A DNA stretch of 45,394 bases. Source: a virus (Duplodnaviria > Caudoviricetes). The translations under genes were made by a program, and so were the position numbers. Location: the IMG/VR virus record IMGVR_UViG_3300032315_000882, positions 1 through 45,394 of that record; one strand, 5' to 3'. Below the pieces are notes generated by a model. The model saw nothing but the letters and a program-made list of their open reading frames with translations. It had not been told where the DNA came from and did no database searches. Shown here one piece after another: positions 5,073 to 39,742 of the stretch. Every line of letters starts with the position of its first letter. Position 1 is the first letter of the stretch.

Positions 5073-5675
5073 ATGAGCAAAGATAGAAGAAACTACAGCA
5101 TGCGCCTCAACGCGCAGCAGAAGGGCCCCGCCCTTCCCGACACGACACCCCTGAAGACTGGCGACACCCCGGTCTTCGACCTTGCGCGCGGCGACACCGA
5201 CCCCGCCCCGAAAGGCCCAACCCCCTTCCAGTATTTTGCCCGTGTCGCCAGCGACCGCCGCCGGGGCACGCCCCTCCCTCCCGAAGCCACGGGCGATCCG
5301 CACCCCGACAGGCTGGCCCGCGCCGAGGCGCTGCGCCAGGCGCTGATCGAAAGGGACAACCGCTACCGGATCGAAGGCTCGGAGGATCGCGTCGACAGCT
5401 CGCCCGTACCGAGGGGCCAGCGGTCCCAGACACCAGACATCCCCCTTCCCCTCAGCTATTACGTCGACATCCCTGCGGACGAGGCCTTCATCGAAGGGCG
5501 GCGCGGCGAGGACGTGCTCTACTTCATGACGATCTCCGACGCCGCCCGCTGCATGACCGGTGAGAGCCGGGACGCCTGGCGCACCGCCATCAAGAACGCC
5601 GCCGACGGCACCACCAAGGGGGCCTTCGGCTGGACCTGGTTGCGGCTGCGCAGCCGCAGAGGGAAGAACCGTTGA
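5073..5675 (+). CDS. Hypothetical protein with C-terminal NUMOD1-like DNA-binding motif
   Basis: GAAGGA RBS; C-terminal YFMTISDAARCM...AIKNAADGTTKGAFGWTW. Confidence 0.6.
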   Translation: MSKDRRNYSMRLNAQQKGPALPDTTPLKTGDTPVFDLARGDTDPAPKGPTPFQYFARVASDRRRGTPLPPEATGDPHPDRLARAEALRQALIERDNRYRIEGSEDRVDSSPVPRGQRSQTPDIPLPLSYYVDIPADEAFIEGRRGEDVLYFMTISDAARCMTGESRDAWRTAIKNAADGTTKGAFGWTWLRLRSRRGKNR

Positions 5676-8512
5676 CCACCTTTCACGGGGACACGGAGAC
5701 CTTCTGCGAAACGCCCCTCGCCCACGGCCTGCACCGCTACGCAGAGAAGGTCGAGATCACGGTCCTGGCCTGGGCTATTGACGAGGGCCCAGTCGAGGTC
5801 ATCGACTGCACCAGGCCCGGCTGGGAGGACAAGGTCAAGGTGGCGCTGGCCGCCGCCGACGCCGCCGACGAGCAGGTCTGGCAGAACTCTGCCTTCGACC
5901 GTACCGTCATGCGCCACGCATGGGGCTACGAGATGCCGGTCGAGAGGGTCGTGGACACGATGGTCCAGGCCCTCGCCCACGGCCTTCCCGGCTCCCTCGA
6001 CAAGCTCTGCTCGGTGCTGGGCGTGCCGACTGACCTTGCCAAGCACAAGGAGGGCAAGCAGCTGGTCCAGCTCTTCTGCAAGCCCAGGCCCGAGACCTCG
6101 AAGGTCAGGCGCGCGACGCGCGAGACCCACCCCCTCGAATGGCAGCGGTTCCTCGACTACGCGGGCTCCGACATCCTGGCGATGCGAGAGGTGCGCAAGC
6201 GTCTGCCTAAGTGGAACTACCCCGCGAACCAGCGCGAGCGCGACCTGTGGGTGCTCGACCAGAAGATCAACGACAGGGGCGTCGCCGTCGACCTGGCCCT
6301 GGCAGAGGCCGCCGTGCGCGCCACGGACCTGGCCAAGAAGGGGCTGAAGGCGAAGACGCAGGAGCTGACCGGCTTCGACCCGGAGACGGGTCAGGGGCTC
6401 GAGAGCACCACGCAGCGCGACGCCTTCCTGAAGTACCTGCTCGGTGAGTTCGACGTCGACCTGCCCGACATGCAGAAGGGCACGCTCGAGCGGCGACTGG
6501 CCGACGAGAACCTGCCGGAGCCCGTCAAAGACCTGCTCCGCATCAGGCTCATGGCCACGGTGTCGTCGACCGCCAAGTACAAGACGCTCCTGCGGGGGAC
6601 GTCGAGCGACGGGCGGCTGCGCGGGACGCTCCAGTTCTGTGGCGCTGCGCGCACCGGCCGCTGGGCTGGCCGCCTCTTCCAGCCCCAGAACCTGATGCGC
6701 CCGACGCTGAAGCAACAGGCCATCCTCGACGCCATCGAGGTCTTCCTCGCCGACTGCGCGGACCTGGTCTACGACAACGTCATGAACACGGCGGCGAACT
6801 GCACGCGCGGCGCGCTGACCGTCGGGCCCGGCAAGAAGATGGTGTCCTCCGACCTGGCCAACATCGAGGGCCGTTTCCTGGCATGGCTGGCGGGCGAAGA
6901 GTGGAAGCTCCAAGCCTTCCGCGCCTTCGACGCAGGCACCGGGCCCGACCTCTACTACGTCGGCGCGTCCGAGGTGCTGAACATACCCATCGACCAGGTC
7001 ACGGCCGACCAACGCCAGTCACACGGGAAAACACCGGAACTCGCGTGTCTTGGCCCTGATACCCAAGTGTTGACTAGCACCGGCGTGAAGCCTATTATCA
7101 CGGTTCTCGAAACAGATTTGCTATGGGACGGTGAAGAGTGGGTGAAGCACGACGGCCTTATCGACCGGGGCCAACGCCGGACAATCCTCGTGGAGGGGGT
7201 CGAGATGACCCGGGATCACCTGATCCAATGCGGAGACCTGTGGCGGAAAGCGGAACGGGTCGCCTCAAAGCGTATCTGCCGCGCCCTGTCGAGGGCCAGC
7301 GGTTCGGACAGCTTGTGGTCTCTGGCTTCGACCTTGGGCCTGCAGGAGGTCTTCGCGCGGTCAGGGTTCGCTGTGATTGCGGAGCGCCTGAACACCGCGT
7401 CCACATCAGCAACCTGCGCAACGGCTACTCGCGAAGCTGCCCCAAGTGCGCCATCAAAAAATCAGGAGCCAAGCGCAAAGAGTGGTTTCGTTACGCAGAC
7501 GTCGTGCCCGACGACGGTCATCGCCGGAGGCTATGCAACCGTATCGCGGCTTGTGTTAACCGCTGCCATAACCCCAACGATGCAGGCTGCAGGAACTACG
7601 GCGGCCGGGGCATCTTCGTCCACGCGCCTTGGCGCGCCGACCGCGCCGCGTTTCTCGCCTACCTGGTCACGCTTGACGGGTGGGATCAGCCAGCTCTGGA
7701 ACTGGACCGCGAGGACGTCAACAAGGGCTACGAGCCCGGCAACCTCCGCTTCATCACAAGACAAGAGAACTCGAAAAACAGACGTAAGGTCGGGGTTATG
7801 GAAGCCCGGATCGCGGAGCTTGAGGCCCGTCTACGATCTTGCAAATGCGGGACCGCGTAACCGCTTCACCGTGGTCAACGCGGCCGGGGAGGCTCTAGTT
7901 GTCCACAACTGCGGCTACCAGGGTGCGGTCGGCGCGTTCCAGGCGATGGCCCGCATCTACGGGCTGGAGATGTCCGACGCCCGGGCCCTCGAGATCGTGA
8001 AGGCCTGGCGCAAGAAGAACAAGCACATCGTCGAGCTATGGTACGAGACCGAGCGCGCCGCGATCCGCGCCGCAGAGCAGCCTGGCCTGCGGGTCGAGGC
8101 GGCCGGTGGCAAGCTCGTCTTCCAACGCGACGGCAGCTGGCTGCGCATGCGCCTGCCGTCTGGCCGTTGCCTCTGCTACCCCGGCGTCGCCGTCGAGGAG
8201 GGCAAGCTGACGTACATGGGCACGAACATGTACACCCGGAAATGGGAGCGGCTGCACACCTACGGCGGCAAGCTGATCGAGAACGCCACGCAGGGCGGGG
8301 CTCGCGACGTGCTGGCGCACAACATGGCCGAGGCCGAGGCGGCTGGGTTCGAGATCACACTCACGGTCCACGATGAGCTGGTCACGGAGACAATCGACAG
8401 CGGGCAGTTTACCGCGGAGCGTCTGTCTGCCATCATGTCAACCGTACCGCCCTGGGCGACGGGCCTCCCGCTCGCCGCCTCCGGGTGGGAAGGACAGAGG
8501 TATCGAAAATGA
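5672..8512 (+). CDS. polA: Family A DNA polymerase with 3'-5' exonuclease, interrupted by an intein (mature protein ~658 aa)
   Basis: ExoI DTET, NSAFDR, DYAGSD; GAARTGRWAG; motif A SDLANIEGR; motif B GKTPELA/CGYQG; motif C TVHDE. Confidence 0.95.
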   Translation: MTTFHGDTETFCETPLAHGLHRYAEKVEITVLAWAIDEGPVEVIDCTRPGWEDKVKVALAAADAADEQVWQNSAFDRTVMRHAWGYEMPVERVVDTMVQALAHGLPGSLDKLCSVLGVPTDLAKHKEGKQLVQLFCKPRPETSKVRRATRETHPLEWQRFLDYAGSDILAMREVRKRLPKWNYPANQRERDLWVLDQKINDRGVAVDLALAEAAVRATDLAKKGLKAKTQELTGFDPETGQGLESTTQRDAFLKYLLGEFDVDLPDMQKGTLERRLADENLPEPVKDLLRIRLMATVSSTAKYKTLLRGTSSDGRLRGTLQFCGAARTGRWAGRLFQPQNLMRPTLKQQAILDAIEVFLADCADLVYDNVMNTAANCTRGALTVGPGKKMVSSDLANIEGRFLAWLAGEEWKLQAFRAFDAGTGPDLYYVGASEVLNIPIDQVTADQRQSHGKTPELACLGPDTQVLTSTGVKPIITVLETDLLWDGEEWVKHDGLIDRGQRRTILVEGVEMTRDHLIQCGDLWRKAERVASKRICRALSRASGSDSLWSLASTLGLQEVFARSGFAVIAERLNTASTSATCATATREAAPSAPSKNQEPSAKSGFVTQTSCPTTVIAGGYATVSRLVLTAAITPTMQAAGTTAAGASSSTRLGAPTAPRFSPTWSRLTGGISQLWNWTARTSTRATSPATSASSQDKRTRKTDVRSGLWKPGSRSLRPVYDLANAGPRNRFTVVNAAGEALVVHNCGYQGAVGAFQAMARIYGLEMSDARALEIVKAWRKKNKHIVELWYETERAAIRAAEQPGLRVEAAGGKLVFQRDGSWLRMRLPSGRCLCYPGVAVEEGKLTYMGTNMYTRKWERLHTYGGKLIENATQGGARDVLAHNMAEAEAAGFEITLTVHDELVTETIDSGQFTAERLSAIMSTVPPWATGLPLAASGWEGQRYRK
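7046..7909 (+). mobile_element. Intein (288 aa) inserted in polymerase motif B
   Basis: Block A CLGPDTQV, block B MTRDH...WRKAE, block F PVYDLANAGPRNRF, block G VVHN followed by +1 Cys; removal restores GKTPELA-CGYQG. Confidence 0.93.
7228..7860 (+). CDS. HNH-type homing endonuclease encoded in an alternative frame inside the intein (start ATG 7228 or GTG 7240)
   Basis: GQRFGQLVV, CDCG, SCPKC, RCHNPN...NYGGRGI.V...W, LDREDVNKGYEPGNLRFITRQENSKN, typical of phage HNH/AP2-associated endonucleases; GC-rich third positions in this frame. Confidence 0.85.
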   Translation: MRRPVAESGTGRLKAYLPRPVEGQRFGQLVVSGFDLGPAGGLRAVRVRCDCGAPEHRVHISNLRNGYSRSCPKCAIKKSGAKRKEWFRYADVVPDDGHRRRLCNRIAACVNRCHNPNDAGCRNYGGRGIFVHAPWRADRAAFLAYLVTLDGWDQPALELDREDVNKGYEPGNLRFITRQENSKNRRKVGVMEARIAELEARLRSCKCGTA

Positions 8513-15539: not shown

Positions 15540-18500
15540 TCACTGCGTCTTGCTGCCGGGCGACGGTGCGCCGGTGATCGCCCCGCGCACCACGTCCACC
15601 GGGCCCGTCGGTTCGACGTCCTCGTTGACCACATCGGCGGCGTAGCCGAGGGGCTTGGCGAGGGGCAACAGCGGGAGCCCCGATACCAGGCCCAACAGGG
15701 TCAGCACGTTGCGGACGTCGGCACGGTTGAACTTCTCGCCGTTGACGACGCTGTCGTAGACCGATGCGGGGGCGAGCAGGCCCCCTTCAACCACGGACAA
15801 CACCGGCGACACGGAGAGGCGGTCGTCGAAGCGGGCCTCCGTAAAGCCGCCGAGGGCGACATTGGCCAGGGGCCCAGCGATGGGGATCGACGAGAGGCCG
15901 AGCTTGAGCTGGCTCCCGAAGAACCAGTTCAGGGCCTCGTCCAGGTAGCCGTCCTCCTCATCGTCATCCCAACCACCGCGCATCAAATCCGCGATGGCTT
16001 GGCCCACGAGGGCCTGGGCGGCGAAGCCCATCAGGTAGACGTAGAAGAGACGGCCCTTGCCCTTGCCCACACCGACGCCCCGCGCCACGATCTGCGTTTC
16101 CGTGGCGTTGAGGTTGGCCAGCATGTTGGCCCAGCCGCCGAACTGCGTGAACATCCGCACGAAGGGGGAGCCGGTCTCGAGACGGGCGACGTCTTCCGGG
16201 TTCCACGACCCCTGCGTTTCGCGCAGGACGCTGTCGGCAAAGCGGACGGCGTCGGCGGTCGACTGCCCCTCTGACGTCGCCTGGTCGAAGGCGGCGGTCC
16301 AGATGATCGGGTCCATGACGTTCTGCACGGCGGACTGCATGAAATAGCCGTGGCGGATGGCCCACTGGCGGGCAGAGCCCAGGGCCGTGGGGTCCAGGTC
16401 GATGATCTCGTTGATGTTCTGGCGCGTCTCCATGATCTGGTTGTCCATGCGGACAGCCAGCGCCGTCGACAGGTTCGTCGCGGCGGTGGTGACCTCGGCG
16501 GGGTTGCGCATGAAGCGCCAGTGGGCCTGCCCAAGACGGGAGGGCTTGACGCGCACAGCCGCCGCGAAGGGACCGCCCACGACCTGCTGCGCCGTGTTGA
16601 TCACGTTGGCGAACATCAGCTGCATGCCCACCGTCCCGCGCAGGTAGCGGGCGGTTCTATCGACCCACTTGCCGCCGTTCCCGATGCCCTGCGCTTCCAC
16701 CGTCTGCTTGGCGGCGCGCTGCAGCCAAGGCAGGAGAAGGTCGGTCTGCGCCGTCGGGTCGAAGGCCTTGAGCCTGGCGGCCAGTTTCCTGTTCTTCAAC
16801 AGGCGCATGGCTTGGCGGACGGCGGGGCCGAGGTGCGTGAACTTCACGACCTTGTCGATGTGGGCTGGCAGCAGGCCCAGCTCCAGAGAGAGGGGCTGGG
16901 TGTAGTTTTCTTCGCGGCCCTTGGTGAAGCCGTTGCCCGTCGAGGGGAACATCTGCGAGGCAGAGTTGCTCTCGAGGCCGTCTTCGCCCTGCCGCAGCAT
17001 GGCGTCCTGCACGAAGTAGCTCTCGGTGAGGGCGGGGACGTAGCCGCCGCGCAGCGTGCCGAAGGGCGTGACGACAGGGTCGGCGGTGATCTCGTTGAAG
17101 TACCGGCCGTACATGACGTGGTGAGCGCGCTGCGCTCCCGGCTTCGTCTCTTCGAGCAAGTCCCAGACGCTCTGGACGAAGGCCCAGTCGCGCTCGGTGA
17201 TGACGCCTTCCCGGTGCATGCGATCCATGAAGGCCTGCCACTGGGTGTCGTCGAGGGTGCCGTCCTCGTTCTTCTTGCCCCACTTGTAGCCGAGCAGGAG
17301 CTTGGTCTTGTTGGAGAGGTTCCCCGTGTGGAGCATGGCGTGGTAGAGGACGGCCTTGCTCTTGAAGACGAAGTTGATCTCGGGGGCGGCGATGTCGCGG
17401 GGCTTCATCTCGTCGCGCACCGTCTCCATCAGCTCGTTCAGGCGGCGCATGTAGGCGGCGCTGTCCCGGCGGTAGCGGTCGGAGGCCTCGGAGATGGGGT
17501 TCCAGATGTAGCGGGTGAAGGGCCCCTGCACCCGCACGTCGACGCCGCGGGCCCAGCTCTCGACGCGGCGCAGCATGGCCCTCACGCCGAGTATCTCGTG
17601 ACCCAGGCGGTCGCTCCTCGTTGGCGTGGTTTCGGGGGCGGACAGATCGGCGTCGGGCTGGATTTCGTCCATCTGTGCGTTCAGCTCGCCGACCACACTC
17701 TCGATGCTGCGCTGCTGACCGTCGATCTCGATGAGCTTGGACTGGCGGGATTGCTGCCAGAGCTGGCGGACGGCGTCACGAATGGCGACGTACTCGCCGT
17801 AGGGCAGCTCGTTGAGGGGGCGCTCAGGGTTGACCAGGTCTCCGAAGACGGAGGACAGGTCGGCGTAGAGTTCGGGGTCGTAGGTCTGCACCGCCTGGAT
17901 GTAGCCAGACACGTCGTTCTTGACGCGGCCGATGCCGTACTTCGACAGGATCGCGCGGGCGGCGTTGACCAGGTCCATGTTGCGGCTGCGGGCGAGGGTC
18001 GCGTCCTTCGCCGTCACGATCCGCGCGAAGAGGCGCAGGTCTTTCTCGACCTCCTTGCGGGCGGCAGCCACGGCCCTGCCGGTGTGCAGGTTGATGAGCT
18101 GGGTGCGCTTGGCCGTTGCCACGCCGACACCGTCGCCCTTGGCGGCGGCCTTGCGAGCCGCCCGCGAGGCCCTGATCTGCGCAGAGATATACTGCGCAGG
18201 CTTCAGGTTCTTGAGGGTCAGGCGTGCGACGACACGGTCGGCGATGGCCTTGGCGGCTTCTGCCAGCAGCGACTTCTTGCCGACGGCCTTGGCGGCGTAG
18301 GCCTCCTCTGCTGCGACGAACTTGACGCGCGCTTCGTTGGCGACCGCCTCGTTGGCCGCCTTCTCGAGGGACTGGGGATCGGAAAGATCGCCGTGCCGCT
18401 CGAGCATGCGCTGGTCGGTGAGGCCCTTGATCTTCTCGGAGGCGACCTCGCCGTTGACAAGGTCTTCGATGAGGGCTTGGCCGCTCGGGTAGCCGAACCA

Positions 18501-21500
18501 GCCAGCGACGATGTCGGGGTGGAGGCCGTCTGTGCCGACCTCCCCATACTTCCCGCCGCGGCGCAGTTTGGTCCAGAGCGGACCTTCGGGCGCAGCGGCG
18601 AACTGGCCGAGGGGCCCCGTCGGGCGCGCGGGCTCATCGCCGTAGAGCGCCTTGAGGGTGGCCAGGTCCAGCTTGCCTGCGCCTTCGACTGGCTCGCCCT
18701 TCTCGTCCAGGCCGCGGCGCAGGAAGGCGCGGGCGCGGTTGACGGGCTCGGCCATGACTTCGGCGGTGACCTCGGCGCGGATCGCCTTGCGCAGTTCCTC
18801 GGCCTCATCTTGCAGCTGCCGCAGGGCACGGGACTTGGCACCCGACGCCCACTTCAGGTCGCGCACCGAACGGCGCTCGAGCTGTTCGACGGCCTCCTCT
18901 GTGGCGTCTCGACCGAGGGCTTGCAGGCGTGCCCACTCATCCTCGGTCATGGCTTCGGGCTTCTCGTCGTAGAGAGCGGAGAGGGCCCAGACCTGGTGCG
19001 CTTCTTCGATCTCCGCTTCCGATGCGAGCATCCGGTCCATGACGCCGCGGACGTCGTCCGTCAGTTCGACGTTCAGGGCGGTCAGCGACTTGTAGACGCT
19101 CTTCAACCAGGAGGAGAAGGTGCGGAAGAGGCTTCTCATCTCGGTGCTCGGTGCCTTCCCCTCGAAGAGGTAGGCCTCGAAGCCACGGGCGAAGCGTTCG
19201 TGGTAGGGGGTCTTCTCCTCGAGCGTCATGCCCGCCCACTTCTCGAGCGTCATGTCGGGGGCGAACCAGCGCATCAGGATGTTGGCGTCGGCGACCGAGA
19301 CGGCGTCGGCGTCGGGCATGTTTGCCAGGTGAAGGGTCGCCTCAAGGAAGAAGTGGCCCGTCTCGTGCAGGAAGGTGGAGAGGTCGGCCGTGCGCAGCAG
19401 GCTGATGACCGAGGGGGTCTGGCTGATGTCCCTGCCGAAGGCGATCTGGCCGCGGTTCTGCTGGAACATGGCGAAGCCAGACATGGCGGCGTCGCGCAGC
19501 TCGGGCGTGATCGTGAAGCCGTTCTGGATGCCGAGGGACGTGGCAGGGCGGGCCAGCTCGGTTTCGTTCGCGGCGATGTAGCTGTCGAGCCTCTCCTGGG
19601 CGCGCCCGGCGGCGTAACTGTCGCCGTCGATCAGTTGCGCGTCTGCAAGGGCCTCACGACGTACTCGTTCGCCCGCGGCGCGGTCTTTAGCGATCTGCGA
19701 GTTCTCGTCCCGCATATCCACCGGCCCGACCTTCGTGCCGAACTTCTTCAGCAGGTCGTTGGTCACGTTGACCAGGTTGCGCTCGTAGAAGAAGGAGCCG
19801 TCGCCGCCGGTCTGGCCGCCGTTCTGCTGGTTGCCGTTGATCCAGGCGATCTGCTCGAAGCCGTTGTCGACGGCGTAGCGGATCATCCGCTTCATGAGCA
19901 GGGCGTCCCAGCTCTTCTTCCAAGGAGCATCGGGGATGCCAGACGGGTCTTGGGCGTTGCGAAGGTCTTGGCGCAGCTCAGTTGCGCGCAAGTTCAAGAC
20001 ACTGAAGCCGCTGACCGCCTCCTCGACGGCGGGCGTGCGAACCAAAGCCAAAGACCCCTGGTTCAATATCCTAAAGGGGTCGATGCCTCGGCCCAGCTGC
20101 TGGCTGGCCTCTTCAAGCGCGTTAAGCATCCCTTCGATGCTTTCAAGCACTGATCCACCTGCAGCTTCTGCTTCAGGCAAAACAGCGTTCAGCTCGATGA
20201 TGCGCTCTTCGACCAGCGCGTCTACGGCGGCGGACACACGTTCGCGCGCGGCGTTCAACTCGCGGACGGCGGTGTCTTCGGCTTCGCGCAGTTCTTTTAC
20301 CCGCGCTTCGTCAACTGTCTGCTGATACCCCTCATCCCGCCCCTTCTGGTGCCAGTCGCTCTGCAGCTCTTCGATGAACAGCACGCGCTTGCCCGCCGCG
20401 TCCTCGCGGCCGGTGATGCGCGCGTGGGCGACGACGTTCTGCTTGTCCCAGTGCGTCGAGGGGCCTTCCACGTCGGGAAGGCTCAGGAGGATTTCGCGGT
20501 AGGTGTCGTCCGCACCGGGGAGCTTGTAGTCAGAAAACTGGGAACCTTGTGCGTCCAGCGCGGTTTCGGCCTCGGCGTAGCTCCCGTACGAAGCGCGAGC
20601 GTTGCCTTCAAGGTCTGTGATTTCGTACTCGGTTTCGCCGTCCTCGCCCTCGTACTCCTGTATGCGCAGGTCGCCGGTCAGCACAGTCTCTTCCAGCTGC
20701 ACGCCGTTGGCGCGCACGAAGCCGAGCACTGCGTCCTTGGTGATGTTGCCCTTGGCGTCGACCTGGCTCGAGGCAGCTTTGAACTCCTCGGTCTGGTTAG
20801 CCAGCCCGTCGAGGTAGTCCTGCAGCCCCGTGATCTCGATCTCTTCCTTCTTCACGCCGGGCGTCTTGGAGAGCGTCGCCATCCACTGCGCCGCTGGCGC
20901 TTTAGTCAGCGGGCTGTCAGCCACAGCGCGTTCGAGCGCCGAGTAGAAGGGGTCGGCCTGGTAGAGGATGTTGGTCTCGTTGGGGTCGAAGAAGCCGCGG
21001 TTGAGGGTGGACTTGATCTGGGTCGGCTGGACCGGGATGAAGAGGTCTTCGGTGTATTCGAGGTCGAAGAAGTCGCGAACGATCACACCGTCGTTGCCCG
21101 CCGCCACGGCCTCGGCCACGATCTCTTCCAGCAGGTCGCGGGGCAGCATGCCGTCGTCGGACTGCTCTTCCGTGAGCCGGTCCTCGAGCTGCTGCTGCGT
21201 GATCTCCAACGGGTTCTGGATCGACAGGTAGACGGGCATGGTCGAGCCAGCGCCGCGCGCGAAGAAGCTCGCGTGCTCTGCATTGGGCGTGAACATGTTG
21301 AGAACGCCGTCGCCCCGGAACGAGTTAAAATCGTAGGGCGTGCCGTGGTAGACGACCAGCGGATCACCGGCCTCGTTCTTGACGACGCTGTTACCGAACC
21401 AGGTCTTGAAGGCGGGCGTGCCGACGGCAGGCATCTGGGGGCCGCCCTGTCGCCAGTTCGGTATGTCCAACTGGAACAGAGCGCCCGTGCCCGGGATTTC

Positions 21501-24500
21501 GGTGAAGTAGTCCTCGGGCCTGGTGTCGTATTGCGTTATGCCCACGGCCACGTCGATGTGGCCGTCCTGGTAGATCACCCCTTTGTGGGTGAGGACGCTG
21601 TGCTGGTTGTACCTGTCGCCCAGTTCACGGGCCTGCTTCTCGGTGATACCGACGACGGTGAAGCCCGGCTCGATCTGGCCGTAGCGGCCGACCGAAGGTT
21701 GGAAGTCATAGCCAGCAGCTTCGAGGTCGGCGGCCAGCTTGGCGTTCGCCGCTTCGTTCTGCGCCGCCGATGCGTTTTGGCCCTGCGGGTTGGCAGCCGT
21801 CAGGATGGCCCAGTCGTCCTTCTCGAGGATCGAGCCGATGTTCTCCGGGGAGAAGTAGGCGTCTACGGTGCGGGGGGCGGGGCCTTGGTTGAAGACGCCG
21901 CCATCCGCCGGGAAAGCGCGATTAGCCGGGACACGGCCTCCATCTCCGTCATCGGGGTCGATGCCTTTGGATCGGAGGAGCTTGGCTGCTCCGCTTGAGT
22001 TGGTGCCTTCATTTGTCCGTATCCCTTGCGCGGCCCAGAGCCGCTTTTCAAAAAACCACAGCAGAGCCTGAACGTCGCCCGTCGGAAGATCGAACTCCTC
22101 CACCAGGTCGCTTGTCAAACGGACAATCGCCCTCCGGTCAACGCCGTCATCCTTTTCACTAGGCTGCGCCACGATGCCGGTCTTCGGGTCGATGGGGCCC
22201 TCAAACAGGCGGCCAGTGTGGCGGCGATAGGTGCGAATGTACCACAGATCGACGGTCACGTCTTCAGGGTCGATGTCGTAGCCTTGGAGCCCCATCGTGT
22301 AGGGGCCGAGCTTCAGGCCGAAGACGAGGTAGCCGGGCTTGTCTGGCCCCGCGATCTCGGCCTTGGTCGTGTAGCGCCCAGCCTTGTATATGCCGCTGTC
22401 GAGCATCGCCGCGTTGATGTCGGTGCGCGACTGCGGCGTGATGAACCAGTCCATCGCCGCCTGAAGGCTCCCCTCGCGCTCGACGAGGTGTGCCACGATG
22501 GCGAGCATCTTGTTGTTGTCGGGGTTGCGAGGCCCCCAACCCTTGGGCTGGGTGACCATCTCCCCTGTCTTGTTGGACTTGAAGGTGGTCATCTGCACCG
22601 GGAGACCACGGGCGATCCACGCTGCCTCGCGGCTAGACGGGATGACGCCAGTGGCGAGGTAGGCCTCGTATGCCTCGGACGCCAACATGAAGGCTTGGTC
22701 TGGGTCCAGGCCACTGGAGAAGAACCCGGCGAAGGTCAGGTACAGCGAGCGGTGGGAGGGTTCCGTCAGGAGCTTCGGGTAGACCCGGCCCGCCATCTCG
22801 ATGGCCTTCTGCACGTCGGCAGAGTACCAGCCCACACCAGAGTTCGGCTGCAAGAGTTGCGCCCTGACCTCGGCGATGAAGGCGTCGCGGACGCGGGCGT
22901 AGTCGGCCTCGTCGTTCTCGGGGTAGAGCTTGCGCCCCTCCGTCGCCATGTGGTGATCGGTCAGCGCCTTGGCGACGGCGTTGATCGTGAGCTTGCCTTC
23001 GACCGGCAGGGGGTTGTCGAGGAGCGGCACGCCCGTCTGGGCGTAGCTCGAGCCGAACAGCTCGGAGAGGGCCTGTTCGCGGAAGTCTTCGGGGGGACGG
23101 GTCGCGACGCTCTCTTCGGGATCGGTGCGCGCGGCGAGCCGCGCCAGGCGATCCTGTTGTGCCAGCTCGCGCATGCGCGCGGCAAGCCGCTGTGCGTCTT
23201 GCGCGGTGCGGACGGGCCCCATCGGCTCCATGTCGACGGCGTCGAACATGGCCACAGCGCCGGGGATCATGGCGTCGCTGCGGTAGCCGCTAAAGCCTGC
23301 GGCCTGGATTGCCTTCTCGTAGGCGGTGGCGATCTCCATCGCCGTGCCCTCGGTGGGCTTCAGGCCCTGCGGGTCAGCGTCAAAGTCGTAGAGCTTTGAG
23401 GCGGGGACGCGGGCCTGGTAGCGGAACGACCTGCCACTGATACCAGTTTCCGGTTCGCCGTTGTAGACGCCTCGCACCCCGAAATAGGTGCGGCCCGGCG
23501 CGCCTGCATTGCGGCGCTCCCGTTCGCCTTGCGGCGTCACGCCTGCGGAACCCCAACGAGAGGGGTCCGAGGTCATGATCCCCGGCATGCTGCTGAAGTG
23601 GATCAGGTCGACGGTCTCTTCCTGGGCGAGCGTGTTGTCTTGGTTCGTGCCGGGCAGCTCTGCGTTGAACTCCAGCGGCAGAAGCTCTGCCATCTGCTCT
23701 GCCGACATACCGCGGCGAGCGCCGAGGGTGGAGTAGAAGTTGGCGACAATCGCCCCGTAGCGTTGGTTGACGTCGGAAGTGAAGCGGCCGGTGGCGTTGA
23801 GCTTCGCCGCGATCTGGCCCGCGACGACGTCGCGCGAGGCCATCGCCGCCTCGGTCTCTGCCGACCGCTCGAAGGCCTTGGAGAAGTCCTGTTGGATCGT
23901 CTCGTCGAGGTTGGCCAGCTGCTCCTTGGCGTCGGCGCGGCTCATCCCCAGGGGGTCCGTGCGCAGGTGGTCGAGGAGGGTGGCGTTGGCCTGCGTACCG
24001 GCGACGTGGGCGGTGTACTCGCCGACCGTCATGCGGATGTCGGAAGCGCCGGAGCGGATTTGCTCGGCGACGTGGGGCACGGCGGCGGCGAGGGCGTCGA
24101 GGTCGAGGTCGGTTTCGTTGGCCGACTGGAAGAGGGTCTCGCTGGCGATGTAGATGTCGGTCACGTCGCCGTCTTCGGCGGCCATGTCGACGAACTGCTG
24201 GAAGGTCTGCGCTTCACGGGCGTTGAGCTTGGAGGCAGCAGCCAGGATGCCGAGCTGCTCGACCATGCGAGCGCCGCTCTCGGCCCTCTGGCTTTGCGCT
24301 TCTGCTCTTGCGCCGCGGTTCAGCTGGTCTTCGATAGTGGCGGTAACACCGCGCACCGTCGCACCGAAGGGGCCGCCGATCACAGCGCCTTGCGCCGCCC
24401 GGTCAAGAGCTGTTACCGGGTCAAAGCCCGCCTCCGTACCGACGGTAGCACCGGCGTATTCGATGACGCTTTGCGCCGTTTCCGTCCCCAGCTCGACCAC

Positions 24501-25532
24501 ACCGGCTCGCCCCGACGCCCCCGCGACAGCGCGAAGACCGCCGCCGACAAGTTCGTCGCTGATGCCGAGCATGCCGCGACCGCTGAGTTTGTCCAGGTAG
24601 GAAGACGCCACGGCGGCAGGCAAGGCGGCCACGAGGTCACCTACGGTCGTGATTTCCCGCCCGTCGTTCTCAGCGCGTTGGCCCCCGATGTCGCCTGTTT
24701 GGGAAGCAACATAGAACGGCGTGGCGAAAACCGCGGCGATCATGTCGGGGAGCGAAGCGATGCCTTCCTCGAGTATAAAAGGTATCGCGCGCTCGACAGG
24801 GCGTTGTTTGAACTCTTCCCAGGTTGTGCCTTGGGGGACGGGGTTCACGTCGTCCAATGCGTTAGCCAAACGCAGACCGCGCGCGTATGTCTCGGGGGTG
24901 CTGCGCACGATAGAGATCGCGCCGGTGGTTTCGTCACGCACGGCGTCGAACGAAGGGATGCCAGCGCGGTCAAGTTGCCGTCGAACGAACGGCTCGACGC
25001 CACCCATTGTTGTCTCGGCCGTGCCCGCAAAGTTTGTGACAATCTGCCCCGAGCGTTCGCCCAGGCGCGATATAAGACGCTCAATGCCGGAACCGAAACC
25101 TCCGTTCGGGGCAGGCTGCATCGGGCCCGAGAAGGCGTTGGGGCCGTACTCTGCGAGGATGCGTGCCTGGCGGCCCGGGTCCGCCGGGGCGGCGGGCGCG
25201 CGTAACGCCTCGCCCCCTGCCAGCAAGCTCTCCATGTCCTGCAGCGTCACGATGTCGTCTTGTGCCAGGCCCGCGTTGACGGGGTTGGACAGGAACTCGC
25301 TCGTTCGCGGCGACGCGGCAGGCAGCTCCGACCAGTTCGGCGGCGGCAGCGGCACGCTTGCCGTCCGCGCTGCCCGGTAAGCGGCCAAGGACATACCTCG
25401 TGCCCGCGCCTCGGCGCGGTCGCGCGCGAGACTGTCGGGCACTTCCACCACACCCATACGCAAAGAAGCCTCCAGCTGGCGGCGGCGTTCCTCGGCAGCG
25501 GCGTCTTGCGGTGTCATGTTGGCAGGTGGCAT
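15540..25532 (-). CDS. Giant (3330 aa) internal virion/ejection polyvalent protein
   Basis: Position after the ejection proteins. ART-PolyVal-like motif (FKTWFGNS...VVYHGT...VYLSIQNP...DGVI...QIKS), HExxH (FLHETGH...HERFARGFEAYLFEGKAP) and other modules. Confidence 0.85.
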   Translation of the reverse strand: MPPANMTPQDAAAEERRRQLEASLRMGVVEVPDSLARDRAEARARGMSLAAYRAARTASVPLPPPNWSELPAASPRTSEFLSNPVNAGLAQDDIVTLQDMESLLAGGEALRAPAAPADPGRQARILAEYGPNAFSGPMQPAPNGGFGSGIERLISRLGERSGQIVTNFAGTAETTMGGVEPFVRRQLDRAGIPSFDAVRDETTGAISIVRSTPETYARGLRLANALDDVNPVPQGTTWEEFKQRPVERAIPFILEEGIASLPDMIAAVFATPFYVASQTGDIGGQRAENDGREITTVGDLVAALPAAVASSYLDKLSGRGMLGISDELVGGGLRAVAGASGRAGVVELGTETAQSVIEYAGATVGTEAGFDPVTALDRAAQGAVIGGPFGATVRGVTATIEDQLNRGARAEAQSQRAESGARMVEQLGILAAASKLNAREAQTFQQFVDMAAEDGDVTDIYIASETLFQSANETDLDLDALAAAVPHVAEQIRSGASDIRMTVGEYTAHVAGTQANATLLDHLRTDPLGMSRADAKEQLANLDETIQQDFSKAFERSAETEAAMASRDVVAGQIAAKLNATGRFTSDVNQRYGAIVANFYSTLGARRGMSAEQMAELLPLEFNAELPGTNQDNTLAQEETVDLIHFSSMPGIMTSDPSRWGSAGVTPQGERERRNAGAPGRTYFGVRGVYNGEPETGISGRSFRYQARVPASKLYDFDADPQGLKPTEGTAMEIATAYEKAIQAAGFSGYRSDAMIPGAVAMFDAVDMEPMGPVRTAQDAQRLAARMRELAQQDRLARLAARTDPEESVATRPPEDFREQALSELFGSSYAQTGVPLLDNPLPVEGKLTINAVAKALTDHHMATEGRKLYPENDEADYARVRDAFIAEVRAQLLQPNSGVGWYSADVQKAIEMAGRVYPKLLTEPSHRSLYLTFAGFFSSGLDPDQAFMLASEAYEAYLATGVIPSSREAAWIARGLPVQMTTFKSNKTGEMVTQPKGWGPRNPDNNKMLAIVAHLVEREGSLQAAMDWFITPQSRTDINAAMLDSGIYKAGRYTTKAEIAGPDKPGYLVFGLKLGPYTMGLQGYDIDPEDVTVDLWYIRTYRRHTGRLFEGPIDPKTGIVAQPSEKDDGVDRRAIVRLTSDLVEEFDLPTGDVQALLWFFEKRLWAAQGIRTNEGTNSSGAAKLLRSKGIDPDDGDGGRVPANRAFPADGGVFNQGPAPRTVDAYFSPENIGSILEKDDWAILTAANPQGQNASAAQNEAANAKLAADLEAAGYDFQPSVGRYGQIEPGFTVVGITEKQARELGDRYNQHSVLTHKGVIYQDGHIDVAVGITQYDTRPEDYFTEIPGTGALFQLDIPNWRQGGPQMPAVGTPAFKTWFGNSVVKNEAGDPLVVYHGTPYDFNSFRGDGVLNMFTPNAEHASFFARGAGSTMPVYLSIQNPLEITQQQLEDRLTEEQSDDGMLPRDLLEEIVAEAVAAGNDGVIVRDFFDLEYTEDLFIPVQPTQIKSTLNRGFFDPNETNILYQADPFYSALERAVADSPLTKAPAAQWMATLSKTPGVKKEEIEITGLQDYLDGLANQTEEFKAASSQVDAKGNITKDAVLGFVRANGVQLEETVLTGDLRIQEYEGEDGETEYEITDLEGNARASYGSYAEAETALDAQGSQFSDYKLPGADDTYREILLSLPDVEGPSTHWDKQNVVAHARITGREDAAGKRVLFIEELQSDWHQKGRDEGYQQTVDEARVKELREAEDTAVRELNAARERVSAAVDALVEERIIELNAVLPEAEAAGGSVLESIEGMLNALEEASQQLGRGIDPFRILNQGSLALVRTPAVEEAVSGFSVLNLRATELRQDLRNAQDPSGIPDAPWKKSWDALLMKRMIRYAVDNGFEQIAWINGNQQNGGQTGGDGSFFYERNLVNVTNDLLKKFGTKVGPVDMRDENSQIAKDRAAGERVRREALADAQLIDGDSYAAGRAQERLDSYIAANETELARPATSLGIQNGFTITPELRDAAMSGFAMFQQNRGQIAFGRDISQTPSVISLLRTADLSTFLHETGHFFLEATLHLANMPDADAVSVADANILMRWFAPDMTLEKWAGMTLEEKTPYHERFARGFEAYLFEGKAPSTEMRSLFRTFSSWLKSVYKSLTALNVELTDDVRGVMDRMLASEAEIEEAHQVWALSALYDEKPEAMTEDEWARLQALGRDATEEAVEQLERRSVRDLKWASGAKSRALRQLQDEAEELRKAIRAEVTAEVMAEPVNRARAFLRRGLDEKGEPVEGAGKLDLATLKALYGDEPARPTGPLGQFAAAPEGPLWTKLRRGGKYGEVGTDGLHPDIVAGWFGYPSGQALIEDLVNGEVASEKIKGLTDQRMLERHGDLSDPQSLEKAANEAVANEARVKFVAAEEAYAAKAVGKKSLLAEAAKAIADRVVARLTLKNLKPAQYISAQIRASRAARKAAAKGDGVGVATAKRTQLINLHTGRAVAAARKEVEKDLRLFARIVTAKDATLARSRNMDLVNAARAILSKYGIGRVKNDVSGYIQAVQTYDPELYADLSSVFGDLVNPERPLNELPYGEYVAIRDAVRQLWQQSRQSKLIEIDGQQRSIESVVGELNAQMDEIQPDADLSAPETTPTRSDRLGHEILGVRAMLRRVESWARGVDVRVQGPFTRYIWNPISEASDRYRRDSAAYMRRLNELMETVRDEMKPRDIAAPEINFVFKSKAVLYHAMLHTGNLSNKTKLLLGYKWGKKNEDGTLDDTQWQAFMDRMHREGVITERDWAFVQSVWDLLEETKPGAQRAHHVMYGRYFNEITADPVVTPFGTLRGGYVPALTESYFVQDAMLRQGEDGLESNSASQMFPSTGNGFTKGREENYTQPLSLELGLLPAHIDKVVKFTHLGPAVRQAMRLLKNRKLAARLKAFDPTAQTDLLLPWLQRAAKQTVEAQGIGNGGKWVDRTARYLRGTVGMQLMFANVINTAQQVVGGPFAAAVRVKPSRLGQAHWRFMRNPAEVTTAATNLSTALAVRMDNQIMETRQNINEIIDLDPTALGSARQWAIRHGYFMQSAVQNVMDPIIWTAAFDQATSEGQSTADAVRFADSVLRETQGSWNPEDVARLETGSPFVRMFTQFGGWANMLANLNATETQIVARGVGVGKGKGRLFYVYLMGFAAQALVGQAIADLMRGGWDDDEEDGYLDEALNWFFGSQLKLGLSSIPIAGPLANVALGGFTEARFDDRLSVSPVLSVVEGGLLAPASVYDSVVNGEKFNRADVRNVLTLLGLVSGLPLLPLAKPLGYAADVVNEDVEPTGPVDVVRGAITGAPSPGSKTQ

Positions 25533-37421: not shown

Positions 37422-39116
37422 CTAGTAGCTGTACGGCGCTGGCGAGCCGTAGCCGGTTAGCTGGTTCATGACGTCGGCACCTGCGTTCGAGGCACCGTTC
37501 TGCGTGGCGACGCCGCCCAGCTTGCCCATGCTCTCGGCGGCCTGCTGCGCGGTGGCTGCTGCCTGTTGCGCCGCCTGCTGGTCGGCACGGGCCTTGCGGA
37601 CGAGGGCGACCTCCTCCTTGCCGACGATCAGCTCTGGGTCGACGCCGATCTGGTCTGCGTAGTTGTCCACCCAGCGGTCTGCGTCGAACTTGTCGAGCAC
37701 TTCGGGCTTGATCTGGGCCATAGCGCCGAGGTTGCCGACGAAGCGGTCGGTGCTATTCGCGCCGATGGCACGTTGGGCCTGTGCCAGGATCGAGACGAAC
37801 TCGACGTCGAGGTTCACGCCGATCAGCTCTTCGGGCGGGGGCGGCAGCGCACCCGCCTGCAGCAGGCGCTCGAAGGTGATCTCGATGAGCGGGTCGAGCA
37901 GCTCGTTGTGGAGACGCTCGAGCACGGGGCCGAGCATCAGGAGCTTCTCCTCGTGGCGCTCTGCCACCTCGGTGGCCGTCATGTTGGTCGAGACGGCCTG
38001 CGAGATCATCAGGAAGAGGTCGGAGTACATGCCCTCGCGGATGCGTTGGCGGACGTCCTGAATGTCCATCAGCAGGTGGTTGAGGTCGAGGCCCACCTGG
38101 AAGAGGGGCTTAACGCCACCACCGGCAGAGGCCGTGTCGGCGACGGTGTAGCCGCCCGGCAGGATGTCGACCTCCTCGCCCTTGAGGCTCGAGGGGCCCT
38201 GGAGCGGCGGGCGGGTCTGGTAGTCGATGCCCTGGCTCTTGCGCAGTTGCTCGTGCTGGAGCTGCTTGATGTCGCCGAGCACTTCCATGCCGGGGCTCTG
38301 GCCGTAGACGTCCTCGCTCGAGGTGTACCAGCGAGGGGCCAGGACGCGGAACCGCTCGAAGCCGCTCTCGCGCAGGAGCTTGTCGCCGTCGCCGCCCTTC
38401 TCGAAGTAGCAGCTGGCCCAGGGCATCTGGCTGCTCTGCTTCGAGCGGATGTCGCGCTCCTTGCGGGGCTCGATGGCGTGGACGATGGTGACCCAGCTGT
38501 CGCCGTTGCCGTTGGAGACCATGTTCCTGACGGCCGACGAGACATTGGTTTCACCAAATTCCTGTACCAGCTGGCGTGCGGTCTTCTGCAGCTCGCGGTA
38601 GGACGTGTCGACGTTGCCCCTGAAGTCGGTGGCCAGGGCATAACGCCCCACGGTGTTAGGGTAGAGGTGGATGCCTCGCTCGAAGTCATCCATCATCAGG
38701 GTGTTGGCCGTGCCGAAGGCACCAAGCTCCTCGTAGAGCTGGTGCAGGGCGCGGTAGGTGTTGGACTGGCCGAACGTGGCCTGCATCTTGCGGGTGACCT
38801 GGGCCAGCCAGACCTTGACGGGCTGATATTCCATGAGCGCGTCGTCGGGGATGCGCAGCCGGAACCAGGGGCGCGCGGGGCTGGTGACGCCCGACATCAT
38901 GCCCGCCGCCAGGATGCGCAGAGCGCCCGTGCCGGTGCGGTCGTAGATGTTGTTGTGGCGCTTCTTGCCGTCGTTGCGGTCGGTCACGGAGAAGCGGCCA
39001 GCGCGAGGGAAGAGTTGCGTCGACAGCTCTTCCCAGTGCGATACCCACGACGACCGCTCGGTCTCGAGCATGGACCATCGCTTCTGGTAGTGCTGCTTCT
39101 TGGGGGTCTCGATCAC
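37422..39116 (-). CDS. Portal (head-tail connector) protein
   Basis: [47 protein letters not shown]; GTG 39116 overlaps the HNH stop. Confidence 0.92.
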
Positions 39117-39742
39117 AGCCGGTTCCCCTTCGCTATGTTTTCGCGGGCTGGGATGCACTGCAGGTTCCAAGGAACGTGCAGCCCGCAGACGGTCTTGCCT
39201 TTGAGGGGCACGATGTGGTCGACGTGGTGCCGCACGCCGGTCAGTTGGCTCAGGTGCTCCGACCGCTCGTAGATGGCGACCAGGGCTTCACGGCTCACGG
39301 TGGGCAGGGTGGCGCGGCTTTGGCGGGCTCGCCGCTCGCCGCAGCACGCAGCCCGCTTCTCTTTGTTGGCCTCGCTCCAAGCCTTGCCAGACGCCTTGCC
39401 GTACGAGGCCACTTTTTCGGGGTTGGCCGCGCGCCATGCCTTGGTGGCCGCAGCCCGCTTCTCTTTGTTGGCCTCGTAGCAAGCCTTGTTGGCCGCAGCC
39501 ACCTTCTCGGCGTTAGCCTCGCGCCATGCCTTGTTCACCACAGCCGCCTTCGCCTTGTTGGCCGCGTGATATGCCTTGATAGCCGCAGCCCGCTTCTCTT
39601 TGTTGGCCGCGTAGTAGGCCTTCTGTTGCTCCGCCACCTTCTCTTTGTTGGCCGCGCGGTATGCCTTCTGGTACTCGGCCGCCTTCTCTTTGTTGGCTGC
39701 ATAGTACGCCTTCAGGTACTCGGCCTTCTGTTCGCGGGTCAT
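39113..39742 (-). CDS. HNH endonuclease with N-terminal tandem 15-aa helical repeats
   Basis: [36 protein letters not shown]; about 8 repeats of KA(Y/W)xAANxEKxA. Confidence 0.88.
39350..39730 (-). repeat. ~45-bp tandem coding repeats within the HNH gene
   Basis: Recurring ttctctttgttggcc / gccgcagcccgc on the + strand. Confidence 0.8.

Follow-up and report, generated by a model that had tools for sequence, protein, structure and literature searches.

The polymerase gene and its intein

The window analysed here is the whole 45,394-bp sequence of IMG/VR record IMGVR_UViG_3300032315_000882 (Duplodnaviria; Caudoviricetes), a complete phage record with direct terminal repeats at its ends. Its plus strand encodes a family A DNA polymerase (PolA) precursor of 946 aa (5672-8512; PF00476, phrog_17), which is interrupted by an intein that appears to carry a nuclease gene nested in another reading frame. 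A preliminary description of the sequence had proposed an open polymerase frame containing a complete intein in motif B and an endonuclease encoded out of frame, and the precursor is indeed stop-free from end to end. Taken together, the evidence below makes it probable that the element is a class 1 PolA intein with a nested His-Me-finger nuclease, which has its own start, a probable internal promoter and a likely role in homing.

The intein comprises 288 aa (7046-7909, plus strand; PolA residues 459-746) and all of its splicing motifs were found: C1 at 7046, T55-x-x-H58 of block B, D264 of block F and H287-N288 at 7904-7909, followed by the +1 Cys of the C-extein (7910-7912, plus strand). These six intein residues are invariant in 31/31 relatives. 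The insert is missing from three alleles (L031-L033) of 1974 nt, which have 95-96% aa identity to the window polymerase, and the proposed ELA/CGY junction can be seen in their DNA. Computed removal of the insert leaves 658 aa, the predicted spliced polymerase, for which the nearest cultured relatives are 53-58% identical (the E. coli 689R2 group and Bordetella BPP-1). By E. coli Pol I numbering (K758, F762, Y766), the insert lies in motif B of a Leu762-type enzyme.

A Hint fold was predicted from the N- and C-terminal parts, with a predicted local distance difference test score (pLDDT) of 95-97 at both ends. The model matches the Mtu RecA intein (2imz; Z 14.4, root-mean-square deviation (rmsd) 2.8, 119 residues), and 29 chains match it with Z 8 or more. 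Residues 101-253 are predicted to be disordered (pLDDT <50) and the intein frame across the overlap consists of 49.5% S/T/A/P, which bears out the Ser/Thr/Ala-rich middle described previously; this composition arises because the wobble positions of the nuclease are the second positions of the intein. The layout is thus not that of a canonical bifunctional intein, where the endonuclease shares the intein frame and separates block B from block F, as the middle is disordered in the intein frame. An in-frame fusion of intein and nuclease was not seen among eight longer nuclease relatives, although this was a weak search. The precursor is predicted to release an intein of 288 aa that has a disordered loop.

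The nested reading frame

The nested nuclease open reading frame (ORF) lies in frame +3 (= -1) on the plus strand (7138-7860; 240 aa) and matches phrog_374 with an E value of 3.9e-31. The hidden Markov model searches of both frames suggested earlier gave this PHROG match, and no match in Pfam or NCBIfam to either frame of the insert. The motifs listed in the preliminary description are present, but its start (7228/7240) and length (about 210 aa) need revision. Frame +3 is open from 7135 up to the stop codon at 7858-7860 and, with a start at 7138, the dual-coded stretch is about 720 nt and includes all of block B, so that reading in two frames is upheld over a longer stretch than the 630 nt first estimated. 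The third-position GC content of the nuclease frame is raised as claimed, but modestly (0.70 vs 0.66 and 0.51).

A total of 52 distinct inteins were extracted, of which 46 have the nuclease in frame +3, leaving 37 after removal of redundancy. The extraction pattern skipped L028, L111, L118, L119, L124, L139 and L140; L111, L139, L145 and L147 were inspected by hand. Over the nuclease match the polymerase frame has no stops in 30/30 viral loci, which are partly redundant and all within PolA inteins, compared with 3-24 stops in the unused frame. It is also stop-free in 22/23 metagenome loci and in two of four genome loci; the remaining two, which have 12 stops and 1 stop, are distant homologues outside inteins. 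When nuclease codons were resampled synonymously, 3.5 intein-frame stops per element were expected, and none was observed in 35 elements, consistent with the proposal that this frame is kept as a stop-free linker. The metagenome exception, L139 (726-3809), is a split (fractured) polymerase intein with a closed intein frame; the nuclease ORF of the family is intact there and is overlapped by the two intein halves. Separate translation is therefore needed in that locus, and the ORF can stand as its own gene. The L139 nuclease ORF has about 80 additional N-terminal residues.

Selection was compared on equal-length pairs as the proportions of nonsynonymous and synonymous differences (pN/pS); the window was excluded, as its equal-length partners all have <=62% identity. 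In the core, pN/pS was 0.038/0.323 in the nuclease frame vs 0.110/0.088 in the intein frame for L008/L010, and 0.035/0.427 vs 0.130/0.097 for L022/L023, and the pattern was reversed at the intein ends. These substitution patterns show purifying selection acting on the nuclease frame in the middle and on the intein frame at the splicing ends. Homologues with stops in the nuclease frame, which would speak against a functional nuclease, were found in two lineages, L021 (=L134, L091; 2768-3643) and L122 (59-685), both with an open intein frame, and they may be decay intermediates of the nested nuclease.

The dual coding is widespread among phages and is not an assembly artefact. Contigs of runs X2-X4, from three other studies, align gap-free across the intein (identity about 96%), and the compensating indels that the preliminary description had asked about were absent: none was listed in the eight sequencing runs compared with the window, and the phase is the same in all contiguous homologues.

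Signals for expression of the nuclease

The start of the nuclease was placed by stop codons in frame +3. Between intein residues W32 and W66, three stops were seen in the 37 inteins vs 47.7 +/- 6.1 expected, and 35/37 are open, whereas upstream of W32 there were 71 stops vs 56 expected. Control inteins that do not use frame +3 have stops in the W32-W66 stretch in 6/6 cases. The frame +3 codon at W32 is ATG in 27 of the 37, GTG in eight, CTG in one and TTG in one; in the CTG and TTG members the frame is already open from an ATG, with GGAGG, five codons upstream. In the window, the Shine-Dalgarno (SD)-like sequence and start occupy 7124-7140 on the plus strand, with GGGACGGTGA formed by the W27-D28-G29-E30 codons and GTG 7138 formed by the third base of E31 and the TG of W32. 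The SD energy at W32 is -6 to -7 kcal/mol in 45/46 inteins; at W66 an SD is weak or absent in most. Because stops are depleted from W32 and an ATG or GTG with an SD is found there across the family, GTG 7138 is the most likely start, giving a product of 240 aa. A second in-frame GTG with GGAG upstream (7240-7242, plus strand), the start named earlier, is a possible alternative. The ATG at W27 was rejected as a general start, as a stop follows in 13/46 inteins, including that of the window.

Upstream of the start, a sigma70-type promoter, TTGACT-17-TATTAT, is predicted at 7070-7098 (plus strand) within intein codons 9-18. No other site on the two strands of the 45.4-kb genome matches at 10/12 or better. 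At this site 20/37 members score at least 9/12, and the mean score at the fixed site is 8.32 vs 7.41 +/- 0.18 after synonymous resampling. The codon for L9 is TTG in 23/33 cases vs 46/181 for other Leu residues. We infer that promoter, SD and start may all be borrowed from conserved intein codons (L9-T10; 16-18; W27-D28-G29; W32).

An RNA hairpin is also predicted in the window (7091-7143, plus strand; z -3.1). In mRNA that reads through from upstream it would sequester the SD and GTG, and a transcript starting near 7105 would cut into it, with a fall in opening cost from 19.6 to 9.8 kcal/mol. As a conserved device to mask the ribosome-binding site (RBS) the hairpin was rejected, with an opening cost above the null in only 10/37 members and a consensus fold of 0 pairs. 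The family alignment gave no conserved RNA structure at 7085-7150. Slippery heptamers in register were found in 4/37 members, at differing positions, and the window has none.

Fold and active site of the nuclease

The ORF comprises an N-terminal extension, an SH3-like Zn domain (CxC…CxxC), a His-Me-finger core with D190-R191-Y198-N202-N211 and a C-terminal helix. The Zn domain, the core, which is helical, and the C-terminal helix are all seen in a model of the residues from 7240 (pLDDT 85). The label 'HNH-type' used for it previously holds for the PHROG matches, which are to HNH families and not to endonuclease VII (EndoVII, also absent among the 50 listed fold matches), but it is loose: the catalytic His general base of canonical HNH enzymes (I-HmuI type; DH motif) is replaced by an Arg, and this R and the Y are invariant in 35/35 sequences. 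The R191-Y198-N211 spacing (7, 13) equals that of PacI R93-Y100-N113 (PMC3765158, in the part of the paper available), with residues matched by spacing. In PacI, the accessible portions of PMC5714182 and PMC3384342 describe a Tyr that substitutes for His. In structure comparisons PacI also ranks first for the core, although the match is weak (Z 4.8, rmsd 4.0, 90 residues). The active site may thus be PacI-like (D-R…Y…N), which makes the protein a candidate tyrosine nuclease.

Relatives of the nuclease are frequent in phage genomes outside polymerase genes, and 728 phage records match overall. In P0001 and P0003, close relatives are joined in frame to a ThyX (PF02511) N-terminus.

Empty alleles, rival inteins and mobility

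In a quick tree the window extein groups with six alleles that are empty and one that carries another intein (support 100). The closest relatives of the window nuclease (64%) are found in exteins merely 38-50% identical. Immediately 5' of the insertion site is a foreign extein tract (7019-7045, plus strand), which includes the motif B lysine and is likely to be a co-conversion tract. The 30 nt 5' of the site have 11 mismatches against L031, where the gene mean is 1.5 per 30 nt and the maximum elsewhere is 8; L031 and L032 differ by one mismatch in the same 30 nt. Empty alleles in runs X11 and X20 depart from the window at 7019. These two runs, of RNA (presumed in the case of X11), are contigs, uninformative on expression, starts and strand, and X20 has no coverage of the intein. 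The X2-X4 alleles have just the mostly synonymous portion of the window 5' tract. Over 7019-7032 the window motif B reads SHGKT, and AQGKV is found in empty alleles and in the intein-bearing X2-X4 alleles; these are allele-specific changes around the catalytic lysine. In a second case, L045 (562-1422) and the near-identical empty allele L049 diverge for about 60 nt on the 5' side of the insert and for a few nt on its 3' side, and the L045 intein imports its own +1 Cys where the empty alleles of that clade (L049/L055/L109) have Leu. Run X11 holds empty and occupied alleles together. Joints without the insert show the nucleotides specific to the empty allele, and so represent alleles at the DNA level rather than products of RNA splicing. 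The 5' foreign tract and the coexisting empty alleles point to homing. Other close empty alleles (L034, L035, L039, L042) have an N-terminal part that is 66 nt longer (2040 vs 1974 nt).

The same site can be occupied by a different element. In L036/L037 (4441-5190), whose polymerase is 79% identical, ELA/CGY is occupied by a different intein of 250 aa that has a related nuclease nested in frame +2, and run X4 contains a 771-nt alternative insert at this site (joint at window 7018-7904). The L036 and window types would accordingly be two rival intein alleles at one site. Frame +2 versions occur at a second site too, in APSE, Caulobacter phage RW, L002 and L003. In L002 (4040-4822) and L003 (4064-4984) the polymerase contains two inteins, of which one has its nuclease in frame +3 and the other in frame +2. 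Because related nucleases occupy frame +2 and frame +3 of sister inteins, repeated out-of-frame capture of the nuclease is suggested. In L110, L112, L117, L123, L127, L128 and L016 the intein lies two to three codons upstream (K[AV]/CEL, KVA/CLAL), which may reflect a shift of target site within motif B.

Alternative explanations

The favoured sequence of events would begin with the out-of-frame insertion of a free-standing phage nuclease gene into a mini-intein, on more than one occasion. Intein codons would double as sigma70-type promoter, SD and start, from which the nuclease would be made as a separate protein beginning at GTG 7138, while the polymerase precursor would splice out the 288-aa intein. 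The nuclease would cut or nick an empty allele 5' of the insertion site via its PacI-type Arg/Tyr/Asn site, and repair would copy the intein with a short 5' tract into the empty polA.

Several observations weigh against this account. Extein and nuclease identity are correlated (Spearman 0.57 overall), and part of the history is therefore vertical or clade-limited; the nuclease tree, made with FastTree, has weak deep support. Within the ORF, the 40 rows displayed of 119 include 15 differences that separate the window from X2-X4; nine alter the nuclease, mostly conservatively, and six are silent, so that constraint on the window allele is less clear. A stop follows W32 in 2/37 inteins. At the promoter site 17/37 members score 8/12 or less, and the null overstates significance because the family members are related. 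The PacI match lies below Z 8, SETP3, Ent2 and SO-1 lack an equivalent of PacI H42, a Foldseek search with the nuclease model returned nothing at E 0.001 or better, and sequence searches of solved structures found no relatives of the nuclease.

The strongest competitor, though the less probable one, is that the nuclease is translated from the long polA mRNA only, from 7138 or GTG 7240, and that the conservation of intein residues accounts for the promoter match. L9-T10 is structurally conserved, so that TTGAC is easily formed, and the promoter site scores 5-9/12 even in control inteins of the frame +2 kind. Conservation of the nuclease frame starts at W66, where N+TG is ATG, GTG or TTG in 41/46, and between W32 and W66 there is selection on the intein frame. 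Against these points stand the depletion of stops from W32 rather than W66, the contrast in SD strength between the two positions and the uniqueness of the promoter match in the genome. A programmed -1 frameshift in the N-terminal part of the intein, giving an N-extein/IntN/nuclease fusion, would suit a nested frame that is -1 and open for 34 codons ahead of the conserved core. It is very unlikely given that the open region starts exactly at an ATG or GTG with an SD, that in-register slippery heptamers are few, scattered and missing from the window, and that 7085-7150 lacks a conserved RNA structure. The separate nuclease of the preliminary description, which left the choice between own start and frameshift, is thus supported by homologues, selection and assemblies, with an own start favoured at a position other than the one it gave.

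It is also improbable, if less so than a frameshift, that the nested protein is a DNA-binding protein or relic kept for a non-homing reason while the intein moves by ordinary recombination. The missing canonical His, the stops in L021/L134 and L122, and the failure of our searches to find a solved or assayed close relative agree with such a role, but the purifying selection on the ORF, the fit of R/Y/N to the PacI catalytic set, and the sporadic distribution with co-conversion tracts do not. Hardly any credence can be given to a group I intron, or to compensating assembly indels that displace an in-frame nuclease. The intron is named in the GenBank annotation of SO-1, yet Rfam gave no intron match in 6800-8200 down to E 10 and the insert has a Hint fold with full catalytic motifs; indels are ruled out by the gap-free contigs and constant phase described above.

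A broader proposal, that the splicing-domain codons form a full expression cassette for a PacI-type nuclease and that the inteins of SETP3, Ent2 and many Jerseyvirus phages are active homing elements, is put forward tentatively, at somewhat less than even chances. If true, one DNA stretch would serve as splicing domain, promoter/RBS and nuclease gene together, and phage polymerase inteins annotated as endonuclease-free would be homing elements of an uncharacterised endonuclease class, with a candidate homing nuclease of tyrosine chemistry. Polymerase inteins now classed as lacking an endonuclease would become mobile elements in a large group of culturable phages; the intein is matched by 145 Salmonella phage and 11 Escherichia phage records. 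Empty alleles, frame +3, frame +2, broken nuclease and split intein would provide a natural series for intein evolution.

Other features of the genome

The window encodes a head, tail and terminase set, and its replication block comprises a DUF2800 nuclease, SSB, PolA, VRR-NUC and an SNF2 helicase. On the minus strand, an EndoVII-like ORF (39113-39742; phrog_1035) flanked by terminase and portal genes is possibly a free-standing homing endonuclease, and a 3330-aa ORF (15540-25532) lies within the structural module.

Comparison with known systems

The general out-of-frame layout is already published for other inteins and the overlap itself is no longer surprising, so that any novelty of the layout, which the preliminary description had left to a literature check, does not hold. 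Gosselin et al. (10.1101/2025.01.02.630785), in the part of the paper available, report EndoVII-like homing endonucleases in frame 3 of actinophage inteins and propose, as here, an origin by invasion of a free-standing nuclease. Both sets have a contiguous intein, a same-strand frame 3 endonuclease ORF and a stop-free intein frame. In theirs, however, the nuclease is EndoVII-like, PolA is outside the 19 host proteins, the ORFs lie mostly outside the splicing domain, and the word 'promoter' is absent from the main text as available. Phillips et al. (10.64898/2026.09.14.751524), citing Gorbalenya 1998, describe in the accessible text an out-of-frame LAGLIDADG homing endonuclease in a cyanobacterial DnaX intein. 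It shares with the window family purifying selection on the endonuclease, a putative SD upstream and coexisting empty and occupied alleles, but differs in being LAGLIDADG, in a +2 ORF and in a cellular host gene, with no promoter discussed in that text.

The same element was recognised as the polymerase intein of SETP3, Ent2, SO-1 and EP23 (Jerseyvirus, Dhillonvirus) and of Pseudomonas phage MR14. These inteins have about 30-39% intein identity, an intact frame +3 nuclease (SETP3 E 3.9e-78), the promoter-like site and an ATG at W32, and sit three codons upstream of the window site (K-A/C-E-L). In GenBank the nested ORF of SO-1 is already annotated as gp39, an intron-encoded HNH, with the note 'type I self-splicing intron'; the Ent2 intein is given as 'encoding splicing domains', and the nested ORF is unannotated in Ent2 and SETP3. 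P45 of APSE-1 and APSE-2 and Caulobacter phage RW have a related splicing domain and a related out-of-frame nuclease (E 1e-23 to 1e-26), annotated as P46 in APSE-1, but differ in frame (+2), insertion site (YGGK[LS]/C) and a start after block B.

Among systems other than inteins, the ShiLan domain (Arsenault et al. 2025, PMC11855218, as far as available) is a stop-free insertion whose frame 3 conceals an HNH; it differs in having no intein, a canonical His-containing HNH and no RBS found there, and its HNH does not match the profile of the window nuclease family. PacI, placed in group 20 of the His-Me fingers in the available parts of PMC5714182 and PMC3765158, shares Arg for His and the Tyr/Asn spacing, but is a restriction enzyme with 19% identity over 90 residues and other accessory domains. 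For T4 endonucleases, the accessible part of PMC2988022 describes an RBS-masking hairpin in read-through mRNA that is relieved by an internal start. The T4 intervening sequences thus resemble the window allele in an endonuclease with its own internal promoter and a hairpin, here predicted, over the RBS. They differ in being introns, with late or middle promoters, and the hairpin is unconserved in the window family. The nested nuclease is unmentioned in the available text of PMC8425127, PMC8785237, PMC7313666 and PMC8594841, and no paper on a nested nuclease or internal promoter in PolA inteins was found, with few subscription journals and no InBase covered. Relative to these systems, what appears to be new here is the PolA family, together with its PacI-type site and the cassette of promoter, SD and start predicted inside the intein.

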